Part shown: one piece after another, positions 972-6,964 of the stretch | Layout of the letters: every line of letters starts with the position of its first letter | Numbering within the stretch: position 1 is the stretch's first letter | Source: a virus | Direction: 5' to 3' (one strand) | Length of the DNA stretch: 64,000 bases | Virus record (IMG/VR): IMGVR_UViG_3300029922_000038 | Coordinates: 25,353 to 89,352 of that record | The notes under the pieces: generated by a model | Databases searched by the model: none | What the model saw: only the letters and a program-made list of their open reading frames with translations | What the model was told of the DNA's origin: nothing | Program-made: the position numbers and the translations under genes

Positions 972-1532
972 ATGAGTTCTCGTAAAATTACTGTGTACTC
1001 TACACAGACTAATAAAAAGAGTGAAGTAAATACAGATGTAGCAACATGGGCAGAACTGCAAGCAGTAATGACAGATGCTGGTATTACCCATGAAGGTCTA
1101 ACTGCAACAGAAAACAGGACAAAAACTAATTTGTCTTTAGGAGCAGCAGTTCTGCCAGAAGGAGAATTTGTTCTATTTCTTTCGCCAAGTACTAAAATTA
1201 AGAGTGGTACTTCTTGGAGAGATATGTCTTATAATGACATCAGGAAACACGCTACTTCAATTGGTGTATCTGGTTTAGGTACAACCGCAGAAATTGGTCA
1301 AAGGATTGAAAACTGGGAGAAAACTAACAAGAATACATCATCTTCAAATGATATTCTTAATACTAAATTTCCTACAGTAGCTGCTAAACTTGATGCTTTT
1401 ATTAAGCATACAGATAAACAATTTGCAGAAGTATCAGAAGCTGTTAATAATAGTGATTATTTTGATAATACTCCTTTTGGAGAAGATGACAATTCTAATC
1501 TTGCAAATGAAGCTGCAAGTCTTGGATTGTAA
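972..1532 (+). CDS. Putative ubiquitin-like (beta-grasp) precursor with C-terminal extension
   Basis: Residues 1-79 show a strand-strand-helix-strand pattern (RKITVYST / SEVNTD / TWAELQAVM / FVLFLSP) ending KIKSG79. A SAP/HeH-like helical segment and an acidic tail follow. Lies directly upstream of the E2-, JAB- and E1-like genes. Confidence 0.65.
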   Translation: MSSRKITVYSTQTNKKSEVNTDVATWAELQAVMTDAGITHEGLTATENRTKTNLSLGAAVLPEGEFVLFLSPSTKIKSGTSWRDMSYNDIRKHATSIGVSGLGTTAEIGQRIENWEKTNKNTSSSNDILNTKFPTVAAKLDAFIKHTDKQFAEVSEAVNNSDYFDNTPFGEDDNSNLANEAASLGL

Positions 1533-1553
1533 TAAGTTTCATATTTTTAATAG

Positions 1554-1587
1554 TAAAATAGGGGTAGAAATGCCCCTATTTTATTTT
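1554..1587 (+). terminator. Intrinsic terminator after the Ubl gene
   Basis: TAAAATAGGGGTA-GAAA-TGCCCCTATTTTA hairpin followed by a T-rich tract. Confidence 0.85.
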
Positions 1588-1599
1588 AATATTTAATAT

Positions 1600-4193: not shown

Positions 4194-4453
4194 AACACAT
4201 TGAATTGCTGGAAACCTAAGTCTATTTATAGATATGGCAATCAGCAGCTAAGATTAATCTTATGATTAATAAAGTTCAGAGACTATCGAAAACACAGTTT
4301 AAAAACTGGAAGTTAGTAGAGTACATCCAAGTGGATGGAAGCGGTGTGACTTTACACTTAGTAAAGTATGATATAGTCCGATACCACGTAACTACTGAAG
4401 TTACTATACCGAAAGGGTGGAAGTTGTCTAACGAACAACAGGTAAATTTATTG

Positions 4454-5251
4454 ACATTTTTTTCAGGTACAGATATAGGGCATTTACATTCTCAATCTCC
4501 AGATCATAATTACTTTCTATCTTTAATTGTTAATTTTGCGTGTGAACCAATTGCTAAAGTAGCTTTTGCTTCTACGCGAAAATTAGCTTCATCATCTTCT
4601 TTTAGTTTTAGAGATGATGAAGGGAATATACAATTTCAAGAAGATAATAGTAATAAAGAAGAAGATATTACAGTAGTATTTAATTGTGATGTATTTGTAG
4701 AAATAGAACCTAAACTTCTTGATAGAATAGATGAATTAAAAGAAGCTAAGAAAAATAGGTATAAACAATTTACAAATAATTGGAATACTAAAAAACAAAA
4801 TTATATTCATACTGATTTTGATTGGGAAAAATGGAAAGCTGAACAAAATGGAGAAGGAATAGCTACTGTTTGGGATACTGAAGGTAAGAGATTAAATGCT
4901 ACTGATATTCAAACGGAGTTTGATTTTAGTAATCATGAAAAACTTATTGCAGATTCACAAATAGAATATTTTACTAAATGTTTACTTGCTGATACTTATA
5001 ATGATTATGAGAAAACAGTAGAATTATTAGTAGAAGATAGAAATGCTTGTGTAGATACAAATGCTGAAGCAAGACAATGTTGTATGGCCATGCACATGAT
5101 GTATGATTCTGTTTTTCATGATGATACTTATTTTACTGAAGTCATGACTAAAGTTATAGCTCTATTAGGTAAATATAAAAGTGATTTTACAACAAAGATG
5201 ATTTCTATCATTAAACAAGAATTAAAAGAATATGTCAGCACAGAATTATGA
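4454..5251 (+). CDS. JAB/MPN+ (JAMM) metalloprotease, exon 2
   Basis: Begins TFFSGTD and continues NYFLSLIVN. Splicing gives HSHHSMATFFSGTD = H-x-H-x7-S-x2-D; the spliced product is about 399 aa. Confidence 0.87.
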   Translation, partial: TFFSGTDIGHLHSQSPDHNYFLSLIVNFACEPIAKVAFASTRKLASSSSFSFRDDEGNIQFQEDNSNKEEDITVVFNCDVFVEIEPKLLDRIDELKEAKKNRYKQFTNNWNTKKQNYIHTDFDWEKWKAEQNGEGIATVWDTEGKRLNATDIQTEFDFSNHEKLIADSQIEYFTKCLLADTYNDYEKTVELLVEDRNACVDTNAEARQCCMAMHMMYDSVFHDDTYFTEVMTKVIALLGKYKSDFTTKMISIIKQELKEYVSTEL

Positions 5252-5939
5252 TAGATTTAAAGATGCTCCTTGGTTCAAACCCCTTAAAGTAATTGTAGGG
5301 GGTGCTGGAGGTATAGGTTCCAATCTTATTTATCTCTTAGCTAAAATGCCATATCGAATTTATATATATGATTTTGATGTAGTAGAAGCACATAATAGTT
5401 GTCAAATGCTTGGAGGTTTTACTAATATAGGTAAGTTAAAAACAAGAGCAGTAAGAGAACTTGCACAAAAATTATCAGATAATTATGGTATTAGAGAGTT
5501 TGGAGAATATACTTCAGAAGGAATGGTAGACGATATTATGTTTGCTGGATTTGATAATATGAAAGCAAGGAAGTTAATGTATGATAACTGGAAACAATAT
5601 CAATTAACTAAAGTAGAAGAACCTGCTATAGAAGAACCTAAGAAAGAGGTTAATTTATTTGTAGATATGAGATTAGCAGCAGAAACAGGTATTATATATT
5701 TTATAGACTCTAAAGAAAGAATGGAAAGATATGAAGCTGAATTATTTGATGATTCAGAAGTTCCAGATGAACCATGTACTTTTAGAGCTACTGCTCATGC
5801 TTCTATGTTAATAGCTTCTTATGCTGTTGCAGGGTTAGTTAATAAGGTAACTAATGTTGAATGGGGAATAGAGGCAAGAGAAGTACCATTTAAACTTAAT
5901 TTTGAATTACCATTATTTAATATGAAAACAATTGTATGA
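5232..5939 (+). CDS. E1-like ThiF/MoeB adenylating enzyme
   Basis: VIVGGAGGIGS nucleotide-binding loop, YDFDVVEAHN, GKLKT, FDNMKAR; candidate catalytic Cys182 in EPCTFRAT. Confidence 0.9.
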   Translation: MSAQNYDRFKDAPWFKPLKVIVGGAGGIGSNLIYLLAKMPYRIYIYDFDVVEAHNSCQMLGGFTNIGKLKTRAVRELAQKLSDNYGIREFGEYTSEGMVDDIMFAGFDNMKARKLMYDNWKQYQLTKVEEPAIEEPKKEVNLFVDMRLAAETGIIYFIDSKERMERYEAELFDDSEVPDEPCTFRATAHASMLIASYAVAGLVNKVTNVEWGIEAREVPFKLNFELPLFNMKTIV

Positions 5940-6964
5940 TAGAGCAATTACATATAGAAAATAATTTTGGATTTATATTACAAAATCATGGCATTAAAGA
6001 AAGTAATTCTTATTGTGAATATGTTCCTTTTTATATATTAAAGCAGAATACAGATTCTTTAATAAAATTAGAACAAGAGAATAGGCAAGGTATAGAAGAA
6101 ATATATAATAATTTATATCATGAGTTTCAATTATGTCAAGATCAAACTTTTTCTCAATATTATACTATTGCTGAATTACCTGCTTTATTTCAAGAAAATG
6201 ATATTATTAGTCATAGATTTAGATTAAGAAATTATGAAGAAGGAATATATTCTCCTTTTAATTTAGAAATAGAAGAAAATATAATTAGGCAATATGAAGA
6301 TACTAAAAAATTTATATCTTTATTTTCATTAGTAATTCCTATTAAATATGTACCTTATGTACAAATATGTTTAATGTTAGAAGAACCTATTGATTTAAGA
6401 GTATATGAATTTTGGATTAAAGAAGATTTTGATATTAAAGATTCTATTTATACTAATTATAGAAAACTATATAGAAAGTATTTATTACCTGATTTAAAAG
6501 AGAATAATGTTCCTATTGTAGTTAAAAAAGATATAGATAAAGAACTTTATTTCTTTCCTGAAATGCCTAAATTTAAAAGAACTTCTGATTATGATAAATA
6601 TGTAGAAGAACTTGTTAAAGATAGTATTATTAAATTAAGGATAGATAATGGTATACAAGGTATTAATAATGATTTTCGTGTAACTTTTGAAAGTAATGAT
6701 TATATATTAGAAGAAGGTACATTAAATGTTAATGGTACTACTTGGAGAACTTTTAATAATTCTGGAGATAATTTAGTATCACAAATAATGAGTACTGATA
6801 CTTATCAACCGTTAACTGCTGCAAGATTAGATTCATTTATATCAAATTTAACTTTTAATTCAAATAGTTCATTAGGTAGTAATATGCCCCCTGAAGAAAA
6901 TCTAAATCATATTAATAATGAATTATATCAAGAAGCATTAAGGAGTATGGAAACTTCTGAATAA
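5936..6964 (+). CDS. Hypothetical protein, translationally coupled to the E1 gene
   Basis: 342-aa ORF with ATGA overlap; no recognised motif. Confidence 0.7.
   Translation: MIEQLHIENNFGFILQNHGIKESNSYCEYVPFYILKQNTDSLIKLEQENRQGIEEIYNNLYHEFQLCQDQTFSQYYTIAELPALFQENDIISHRFRLRNYEEGIYSPFNLEIEENIIRQYEDTKKFISLFSLVIPIKYVPYVQICLMLEEPIDLRVYEFWIKEDFDIKDSIYTNYRKLYRKYLLPDLKENNVPIVVKKDIDKELYFFPEMPKFKRTSDYDKYVEELVKDSIIKLRIDNGIQGINNDFRVTFESNDYILEEGTLNVNGTTWRTFNNSGDNLVSQIMSTDTYQPLTAARLDSFISNLTFNSNSSLGSNMPPEENLNHINNELYQEALRSMETSE

Follow-up and report, generated by a model that had tools for sequence, protein, structure and literature searches.

What might a bacteriophage be doing with what looks like a ubiquitylation apparatus of its own? 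The question is raised by five co-oriented genes lying 3' of the primase gene in IMG/VR virus record IMGVR_UViG_3300029922_000038, an 89,352-bp record of ~55% completeness, of which we have analysed the 3' 64 kb (64,000 nucleotides, hereafter the window). These genes encode a ubiquitin-like protein (Ubl), an E2 candidate, a JAB peptidase, an E1-like enzyme and a fifth protein, and the initial annotation, drawn from the nucleotide sequence, had regarded them as an apparently complete conjugation operon. The coordinates and motifs that it named for the block are all present in the sequence; its reading of the operon is borne out by the prediction tools for the Ubl, the JAB and the E1, with the E2 being moderately supported only. 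We propose, with a probability of about two in three, that the block is a virus-encoded module for Ubl activation and conjugation, found in crAss-like and FpV4-like phages.

The protein on which such a module would turn is the product of the first open reading frame (ORF 972–1532, 186 residues), in which the motif KIKSG ends at Gly79. The AlphaFold2 model, built from a 47-sequence alignment, shows a strand-strand-helix-strand-strand arrangement for residues 1–70, with a predicted local distance difference test score (pLDDT) of 94–98, and Foldseek comparison with the PDB retrieves ubiquitin, ISG15, SUMO and NEDD8 at probability 1.00 (target template-modelling (TM) score ~0.6–0.7, root-mean-square deviation 2.2–3.6 Å, ~75–78 columns). 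In these models residues 1–72 fold as a ubiquitin-like β-grasp, the fold that the initial annotation had expected of this ORF. At the sequence level the domain is not recognised by Pfam, NCBIfam, PADLOC or PDB sequence searches, and a homologous-protein search returned four proteins only, as it did for the E2-like protein. Gly79 is the sole invariant column of the family (47 of 47 sequences), preceded by Ser in 42 and Ala in 5 and, one position further upstream, by a basic residue in 44 (Lys in 38, Arg in 6). Behind the Gly come between 1 and 252 residues that are poorly conserved and mostly helical, and in three relatives (L019, L008 and L009) the Ubl gene stops 1–3 codons past the Gly and the tail is encoded as an independent ORF (L019:4330-4578, L008:3989-4372, L009:3365-3529). 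Gly79 marks a domain boundary, and the Ubl appears from these alignments to behave as a precursor whose reactive Gly must be uncovered. Eukaryotic ubiquitin, which is released from fusions with ribosomal proteins, offers a parallel for such a fusion of a Ubl with a helical protein.

The tail itself, in the window, is modelled as helical at pLDDT 49–72 and appears to comprise a stretch of HeH/SAP type followed by a long helix and an acidic C-terminus with LGL as its last residues; Pfam SAP matches one of the 47 family members (E 0.007). Counted from the C-termini, a Gly is found among the last five residues in ~31 of the 44 tailed members, and many tails end in ...E-(L/M)-G-(Y/F/L), typical endings being ...REARE(L/M)GY, ...EGF and ...LGL. 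The C-terminus of the tail may act as a docking peptide, or as a second C-terminus that is trimmed. A strong terminator-like hairpin, with a folding energy of -20.6 kcal/mol (z -5.4 against shuffled sequences), stands 3' of the Ubl gene, ahead of the genes for the enzymes. Contigs from three peat metatranscriptome runs, belonging to three studies, cover positions 900–1513 and none extends past 1513, and a contig from one DNA run continues to 1829. Contigs from RNA libraries can be DNA, and the ends at 1513, which fit a short and abundant Ubl transcript, are a hint only.

The enzyme that would activate this Ubl is the 235-residue product of the fourth gene. It carries a GGAGGIGS loop (5298–5321), Asp108 within GFDNM (5553–5555) and Cys182 (5775–5777); Cys57 is its only other cysteine, so that no CxxC pair can exist. 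Pfam ThiF matches residues 18–209 at E 1.1e-10 (41.6 bits, the cut-off being 28.1) and NCBIfam ThiF does so at E 3.6e-9, in agreement with the ThiF/E1 fold with GAGGIGS, Cys182 and no CxxC described initially. Among the PADLOC models of bacterial defence proteins, the Cap2 'E1-E2' model gives the best match (E 1.6e-6), and BilD is matched over residues 23–117 (E 3.5e-6). In 41 sequences, 18 columns are invariant, including G24, G26, D47, K70, D108, R113, R147 and C182; we take the adenylation-site residues, the Mg-binding Asp among them, to have the roles that they have in MoeB and ThiF. Against PDB sequences, MccB is the best match of the E1 (E 0.017), with the MccB and NEDD8-E1 matches ranging from 0.017 to 0.13, and against plasmids tblastn finds MoeB/MoeZ only. 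In size the enzyme is closer to ThiF, MoeB and UBA5 than to BilD. A gut-phage protein family with a model matching UBA5 is mentioned in one preprint (10.64898/2026.03.05.709809), and may or may not be the same family. In a crAss001-like subgroup (L059-L084; crAss001 gp76, L003:8149-9300) the E1 is 316–383 residues long, owing to an N-terminal extension of ~100–150 residues.

The removal of the tail would fall to the JAB peptidase, the gene of which is interrupted. Its 5' frame ends ...HSHHSMA at 3307, runs into an in-frame TAG at 3314 and resumes with TFFSGTD at 4454. Once positions 3308–4453 are taken out, the protein reads KIEWSG...HSHHSMATFFSGTD, that is, a complete E...H-x-H-x7-S-x-x-D motif (Glu of KIEWSG at 3092–3094, H-x-H at 3287–3295, Ser at 4463–4465, Asp at 4472–4474), the junction of 3307 with 4454 giving exactly the seven residues between H-x-H and S. 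The JAMM motif that had been predicted to appear on splicing is therefore complete, and the same Glu, H-x-H, Ser and Asp columns are conserved in the JABs of the relatives, at 90% or above in 41 aligned rows. Exon 1 aligns with the N-terminal half of the relatives' intact JAB ORFs, exon 2 begins in register with their FFSGTD, and the spliced protein aligns across the junction to the intact JAB of one relative, L021, at E 2e-38; of the 71 loci in which both halves could be located, 70 have them in a single ORF. At E ≤0.1, Pfam Prok-JAB hits 35 of the 41 members (best 6.9e-6; one example member reaches 16.6 bits, the cut-off being 25), and the only PDB sequence found with the JAB profile is CSN5, at E 0.34. 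Behind S-G-T-D the protein continues with a variable, mostly helical C-terminal part of ~250 residues.

Translation of the JAB may start at ATG 2906 or GTG 3005, both of which overlap the 3' end of the E2-like gene; the annotated overlaps of these two genes are 125 nt in phage FpV4 and 62 nt in crAss001. Over the last 280 nt of the E2-like gene (2864–3144) the JAB frame stays open, and the overlap may reflect translational coupling. A fusion of E2 and JAB by frameshifting was considered and set aside, the overlapping E2 tail being poorly conserved and of low model confidence. At the other end, the E1 gene (from 5232) overlaps the end of JAB exon 2 (5251).

The intervening sequence holds a LAGLIDADG ORF at 3342–4193 (Pfam LAGLIDADG_3, E 3.9e-10; phrog_4645 endonuclease, E 3.9e-45). 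Its boundaries, placed by protein homology, leave the 5' exon ending in T (U) and the insert ending in G. It is probably a group I intron; Rfam gives no intron match in positions 1–9000 at E ≤1, and an intein was rejected because of the in-frame stop at 3314. Around the 5' junction and the start of the endonuclease (3302–3427), Flavobacterium phages of the FpV/FPSV group share 83–84% DNA identity with the window; this query matches 125 phage records in total, mostly Salmonella and Escherichia phages, and Campylobacter phages match positions 3283–3393. This identity across phages suggests that intron and endonuclease form a mobile unit common to distant phages. Similar insertions occur in relatives: L009 has its JAB interrupted between H-x-H and S-x-x-D, exactly where the window does (L009:4542-4922 and 6079-6909), and the E1 gene of L041 is divided by an endonuclease-like ORF (L041:5984-6781). 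The contigs of the three RNA runs bear unfavourably on splicing: no spliced joint is found among them, none of them reaching the 5' splice site, and one (4210–4503) continues through the 3' splice site without a splice. These contigs neither demonstrate nor refute splicing.

The E2 call is the weakest assignment of the module. The candidate is a protein of 514 residues, with HSH at residues 278–280 and Cys291 within FCLG (S279-H280 at 2434–2439, Cys291 at 2470–2472). The structure model gives a putative UBC-like core at about residues 165–345 (2093–2634; pLDDT 73–94), in which a helix and four long strands are followed by the x-S279-H280 loop, Cys291 and helices, with Cys291 placed between strand 261–268 and helix 296–307. 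The columns invariant in 39 sequences are N223, S279, H280, C291, G293, E327, S328, G331 and P333. Outside the core, an N-terminal region of ~160 residues and a C-terminal domain (residues 350–480) have no assigned fold; the family is 330–570 residues long, with extra domains. The N-terminal stretch of the window's protein (1600–2080, pLDDT <50) is absent in most relatives and has a comparable counterpart in L041, L049 and L006.

Comparison of this model with 48,161 PDB representatives by VIA-align produced a list of 50 matches, of which 22 are titled E2, UEV, UFC1, Atg10 or Cap2 (Z 3.9–5.1) and a further 7 are of RWD type, Z ranging from 3.9 to 5.4 across the E2 and RWD matches listed; a second comparison placed the Tsg101 UEV domain at the top (Z 4.7). 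In the ESM Atlas, 28 of the 30 named hits of residues 160–350 fall in viral clusters in which 14–20% of the members are Prok-E2_D (score 0.92–0.93, 191–196 of 256 features shared), and a search by structure reaches, at TM 0.45/0.48, a cluster in which 82% are. With the invariant Cys291 and the E2-like fold matches on its side, we consider it likely that the 514-residue protein is a Cys-dependent E2, as the initial annotation had it.

A series of results weighs against this assignment. The fold matches do not exceed Z 5.4, and values below 8 may reflect a common arrangement alone; actin-capping and other unrelated folds are listed among them, and the whole model finds no Foldseek match at E ≤0.001. 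Neither do sequence profiles support it: Pfam and NCBIfam scans of 39 members yield no E2 family profile, no PADLOC E2 model matches the window's protein at E ≤1, the Prok-E2_D model has no match at E ≤10 in the window's record and five related records, and PDB sequence searches, by phmmer and by profile, find no match. Alignment of the family by hhalign with ten Bacteroidota PRTRC_B/Prok-E2_D proteins (PRTRC being a cassette of plasmids and conjugative elements) gives a probability of 0.18%, the only aligned stretch pairing the phage FCxG with the VCMG of PRTRC_B. Classical E2s carry an HPN motif upstream of the catalytic Cys, and it is absent from the family, which has x-S279-H280 instead. 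According to PMC1779556, HPN is missing in several bacterial E2 families too.

These difficulties speak for an alternative in which the Ubl, the JAB and the E1 are what they seem and the 514-residue protein is no thioester-forming E2, being either unrelated or an adaptor of UEV/RWD type without catalytic activity. The E1 would then transfer the activated Gly79 directly, either onto a target or onto something other than protein, for example a lipid, a nucleotide or a DNA end. Precedents for such acceptors exist in the lipidation of Atg8 with phosphatidylethanolamine and in MccB, a ThiF relative that adenylates a peptide. The weakness of the fold matches, among which inactive UEV and RWD domains are as many as E2s, the want of a matching E2 profile and of HPN, and the place of MccB as the best PDB sequence hit of the E1 (E 0.017) all fit this arrangement. 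However, an inert adaptor would have no need of a Cys291 and an S279-H280 that are invariant in 39 diverse sequences, the model places Cys291 between the fourth strand and the next helix as in E2s, and the gene occupies the position that bilB holds in Bil operons as they are described in PMC11601603. We consider this alternative unlikely.

Conservation of the block, like its motifs, argues for the conjugation module. In tblastn searches of 50,697 phage records, matches numbered 81 for the E1, 72 for the E2-like protein, 62 for the Ubl and 33 for JAB exon 2, mainly in Flavobacterium psychrophilum phages (FpV4 group) and in Bacteroides and uncultured crAss-like phages. The layout of FpV4 (primase, UDG, gp53, gp52, gp51, gp50 'thiamine biosynthesis protein', gp49) is collinear with the window; crAss001 shows primase gp80, gp79, gp78, gp77 'metalloprotease domain', gp76 'ThiF' and gp75, cr128_1 has a layout identical to that of crAss001, and Bacteroides phage DAC15 has matches to the E2-like gene and to the E1 gene. 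A search of IMG/VR for related loci found none with the single E1 protein and 390 relatives with the E1 alignment, of which 80 loci were kept; all 80 contain the JAB, 78 the E2-like gene and 76 the Ubl. The fifth gene is found in 61 of them, in each case directly 3' of the E1. Where at least 3.6 kb are available upstream of the E1, Ubl, E2, JAB and E1 follow one another on one strand in 74 of 75 loci, the exception (L042) having no detectable Ubl. This is more than chance would give; the four consecutive co-oriented genes after the primase, and their co-occurrence in relatives, which the initial annotation had proposed to survey, are thus conserved features of these phages.

On the cellular side, a survey of one genome per species in 185,579 prokaryotic species with E1 patterns found 16 loci only, all on contigs of metagenome-assembled genomes; the four genes are complete on 9 of them, the others being for the most part short contigs. 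The module, as far as this clade goes, therefore looks viral. It is also common: the E2-like profile alone retrieves 3355 representatives (50% identity level) at E ≤0.001 among 1.84 billion cluster representatives, to be added to the 390 IMG/VR relatives of the E1.

We envisage the module to work as follows. The Ubl would be made as a precursor fused to its helical tail and, with a terminator-like hairpin standing 3' of its gene, would probably outnumber the enzymes. The JAB metallopeptidase would cut the precursor after the invariant Gly79, which the E1, most likely a homodimer like ThiF, MoeB or UBA5, would then adenylate. The E1 may pass the Ubl to its own invariant Cys182, from where it would be handed on to Cys291 of the E2-like protein and end on lysines of phage or host proteins, if such targets exist; the JAB could also reverse the tagging. 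Host takeover, counter-defence or replication control, the purposes suggested initially, may be what the tagging serves. Some features sit uneasily with this scheme. The Ubl ends in S-G and not in G-G. The E1 is a single adenylation domain, without a separate catalytic-cysteine domain or a zinc site, and Cys182 may therefore be structural. The record is ~55% complete, and partners could lie elsewhere. The chemical steps, the protein targets and the role of the module are predictions from sequence and models. The features of the region are collected in Table 1.

Table 1. Features of the region, with positions in the window and the basis of each assignment.
Feature	Position	Strand	Basis
DnaG-type primase (opens the region studied)	36-965		phrog_12622, E 3.1e-38
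Ubl domain	972..1208	+	AlphaFold2, Foldseek, invariant Gly79
Helical tail behind Gly79	1209..1532	+	AlphaFold2 helical, low pLDDT; separate ORF in L019, L008, L009
Terminator-like hairpin	1552..1585	+	15-pair stem, GAAA loop, T-rich tail
E2-like protein, 514 aa	1600..3144	+	Model, fold matches, invariant Cys291
JAB/JAMM exon 1	2906..3307	+	Aligns with intact relatives; phrog_21448, E 1.6e-7
Intervening sequence, 1146 nt, with LAGLIDADG ORF 3342-4193	3308..4453	+	Protein homology, in-frame TAG
JAB/JAMM exon 2	4454..5251	+	TFFSGTD in register; phrog_16107, E 5.8e-12
E1-like enzyme, 235 aa	5232..5939	+	Pfam ThiF, invariant columns
Fifth gene, 342 aa	5936..6964	+	Iterated profile family

The surroundings of the module bear on its role. 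Pfam and PHROGs identify a RusA-like resolvase and a PD-(D/E)XK exonuclease 3' of it, and with these two genes and the primase nearby the module lies within a replication/recombination block. Gene annotations in the relatives indicate that this placement in the replication block is conserved in crAss-like phages and FpV4-like Flavobacterium phages. The window has a guanine-cytosine content of 24–39%, and word matches show that its DNA is contained in peat metagenomes from several studies.

A second alternative has the Ubl as a sulfur carrier of the ThiS/MoaD/TtuB type. The E1 would adenylate Gly79, and the sulfur of the resulting thiocarboxylate would go into the thiolation of a cofactor, of tRNA or of phage DNA, with the JAB doing no more than mature the carrier. 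ThiF adenylyltransferases are indeed the best sequence families of the E1 (NCBIfam, E 3.6e-9), database records name it 'thiamine biosynthesis protein', and PMC1779556 reports prokaryotic sulfur-transfer clusters made of Ubl, JAB and E1. The partners of such a pathway are nevertheless missing: in agreement with the initial annotation, which had seen no sulfur-transfer genes nearby, neither ThiG, MoaE, a rhodanese nor a PP-loop ATPase (thiolase) is found in the 89-kb record, in searches that were positive in control genomes, the record being ~55% complete, so that their absence from it is no proof of absence. Moreover, the E1 has no rhodanese domain, the carrier would end in S-G and not in G-G, the Ubl is structurally closest to ubiquitin, ISG15 and SUMO, not to ThiS or MoaD, and a conserved, Cys-bearing E2-like protein would be superfluous. 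Sulfur transfer is on these grounds a very unlikely function. Least probable by our estimate is that the module counters a Ubl-based host defence (Bil, CBASS Cap2/Cap3 or PRTRC-like), with the JAB stripping conjugates and Ubl, E1 and E2 acting as decoys: host Bil systems are described as tagging phage tail proteins, with deubiquitinases that process and remove the Ubl (PMC11601603, 10.1101/2023.09.26.559546), and the phage E1 profile recognises the ThiF of Bacteroidota PRTRC (40–53 bits), but a lone peptidase would be enough for stripping, the catalytic residues of all four proteins are conserved across hundreds of phages, PRTRC_B is too sparse (9 of 401 Bacteroidota genomes sampled) to account for a near-universal module, and the location in the replication block gives no hint of such a role.

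Returning to the conjugation module that we favour, its fifth component deserves comment. The 342-residue protein had been taken for an orphan, which is not the case: with an iterated profile, members of its family are recovered from 63 of 84 loci, and 62 of the 64 matches lie directly 3' of the E1. Its coupling to the E1 gene through an ATGA overlap, noted initially, is present at 5936–5939. The family is fast-evolving, with zero invariant columns and no recognisable fold; Pfam, PHROGs, NCBIfam and PADLOC offer nothing credible, and the ESM Atlas gives a poor model (pLDDT 0.31) and no usable hit. In several homologues (for example L016, L022 and L031) an acidic stretch leads up to a terminal D-L-P-F, P-L-P-F or D-L-A-F, and the separate Ubl-tail ORF of L009 (3365–3529) shares such a D-L-P-F-like acidic end. 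These ends presumably resemble the C-terminal tips of single-stranded-DNA-binding proteins, and the tips of the fifth protein and of the Ubl tails look, in sequence, like docking peptides.

Ubl conjugation has recently been shown to serve bacteria as an anti-phage weapon, in Bil and in CBASS Cap2. A complete equivalent owned by a virus, if true, would place the same chemistry on the other side of the conflict or in the service of viral replication. The same block occurs in cultured phages with laboratory hosts, crAss001 (gp79–gp75) and FpV4 (gp53–gp49), and its recognition corrects the annotation of proteins filed as 'thiamine biosynthesis protein' (E1) or 'hypothetical' (Ubl and E2).

How, then, does the module relate to systems already known? 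In full-text searches that covered few subscription journals and no supplements we have found no description of it, and an earlier mention is possible. The ThiS-ThiF and MoaD-MoeB pairs share with it a ThiF-fold adenylating enzyme and a β-grasp protein ending in Gly; in contrast to it, their core pathway has no E2 or JAB, the carrier ends in G-G, and the partners are ThiG, MoaE and rhodanese. The only phage-borne pair of Ubl and JAB that we found described is that of phages Lambda and T1. According to PMC1779556, TAPI, the Ubl, has a conserved C-terminal Gly followed by a further domain, and TAPK (JAB plus NlpC) is predicted to cut it. This pair belongs to the tail-assembly module, has no E1 or E2 and would serve processing only.

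CBASS also combines E1-like and E2-like domains with a JAB, and, as in the phage E1, the sole candidate catalytic Cys of its E1-like part lies within the adenylation domain; the window's E1 matches the PADLOC 'E1-E2' (Cap2) models (best E 1.6e-6), and Cap2 (7to3_A) is found among the fold matches of the E2 core (Z 4.3). Cap2, however, is a fusion of E2 and E1, CBASS has no β-grasp Ubl, the conjugated end being the C-terminus of the cyclase, and the system is one of host defence.

The likeness to Bil goes further. There, the Ubl, E2, JAB and E1 are encoded by separate genes in the same order, bilA to bilD, as set out in PMC11601603, and the C-terminal extension of the Ubl is removed by the JAB so that a Gly is exposed, according to the same source and to 10.1101/2023.09.26.559546; the window's E1 partially matches the PADLOC model of BilD (E 3.5e-6). 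The differences lie in location and architecture. Bil belongs to bacterial defence islands, whereas the module sits in the replication block of lytic-type phages, and BilD is described (10.1101/2023.09.26.559546) as having two adenylation domains, one of them inactive, together with a CYS domain and a zinc site, unlike the single-domain phage E1 of 235 residues. The phage module is further set apart by an E2 of 330–570 residues with extra domains, a Ubl with one β-grasp and a helical tail, and a conserved fifth gene. For the phage Ubl, E2 and JAB, PADLOC, which may or may not hold BilA–C models, gives no match at E ≤1; BilD is the only Bil model that responded. In the class to which one module-carrying metagenome-assembled genome belongs, searches for BilD (400 genomes) and for Cap2 (300 genomes) gave no match at E ≤1e-30, with the control genomes silent too. 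By sequence and by the architecture of its E1 the module appears to fall outside Bil, with which it shares the gene order; by analogy, it would work like a Bil operon, having the same parts, the same order and the same need to trim the Ubl.

The nearest relative of the module may instead be PRTRC, the cassette carried by plasmids and conjugative elements, for which we found no assigned function in the literature and of which the phage module would be a tractable relative. We infer that this cassette is operon type 6d of Iyer, Burroughs and Aravind 2006, which is listed as comprising a Ubl, a JAB, an E1, an E2-like protein and a rapidly diverging fifth protein (PMC1779556, Table 1, row 6d). Carriage by mobile elements and the type 6d composition are thus common to both. 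The ESM Atlas places the core of the phage E2 nearest to clusters with Prok-E2_D members, the Bacteroidota Prok-E2_D proteins are PRTRC_B, with PRTRC_ThiF adjoining, and PRTRC_ThiF proteins are scored at 40–53 bits by the phage E1 profile. In the Bacteroidota loci (L104-L114), PRTRC_B lies between an upstream protein of ~390 residues, with no NCBIfam match, and PRTRC_ThiF. On the other hand, NCBIfam PRTRC_ThiF gives the window's E1 16.7 bits against a cut-off of 144.75, PRTRC_A gives a relative's JAB 12.5 bits against 101.8, and PRTRC_B has no match; S-H stands ~30 residues after the Cys in PRTRC_B and before it in the phage family; the E2 gene is followed directly by the E1 in the Bacteroidota loci, whereas the JAB lies between them in the phages; and no ParB partner is seen adjoining the phage module. 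Judged by sequence, then, the module would belong neither to Bil nor to PRTRC. Somewhat short of even odds, and put forward tentatively, is the more specific proposal that Bacteroidota phages, the cultured gut crassvirus crAss001 included, run a complete E1-E2-deubiquitinase-Ubl cascade of their own in infected cells, of a lineage shared with PRTRC in mobile DNA and tied to replication or partition rather than to defence, in which the Ubl, released by the JAB from a DNA-binding-like helical fusion, would tag phage replication proteins or host proteins.

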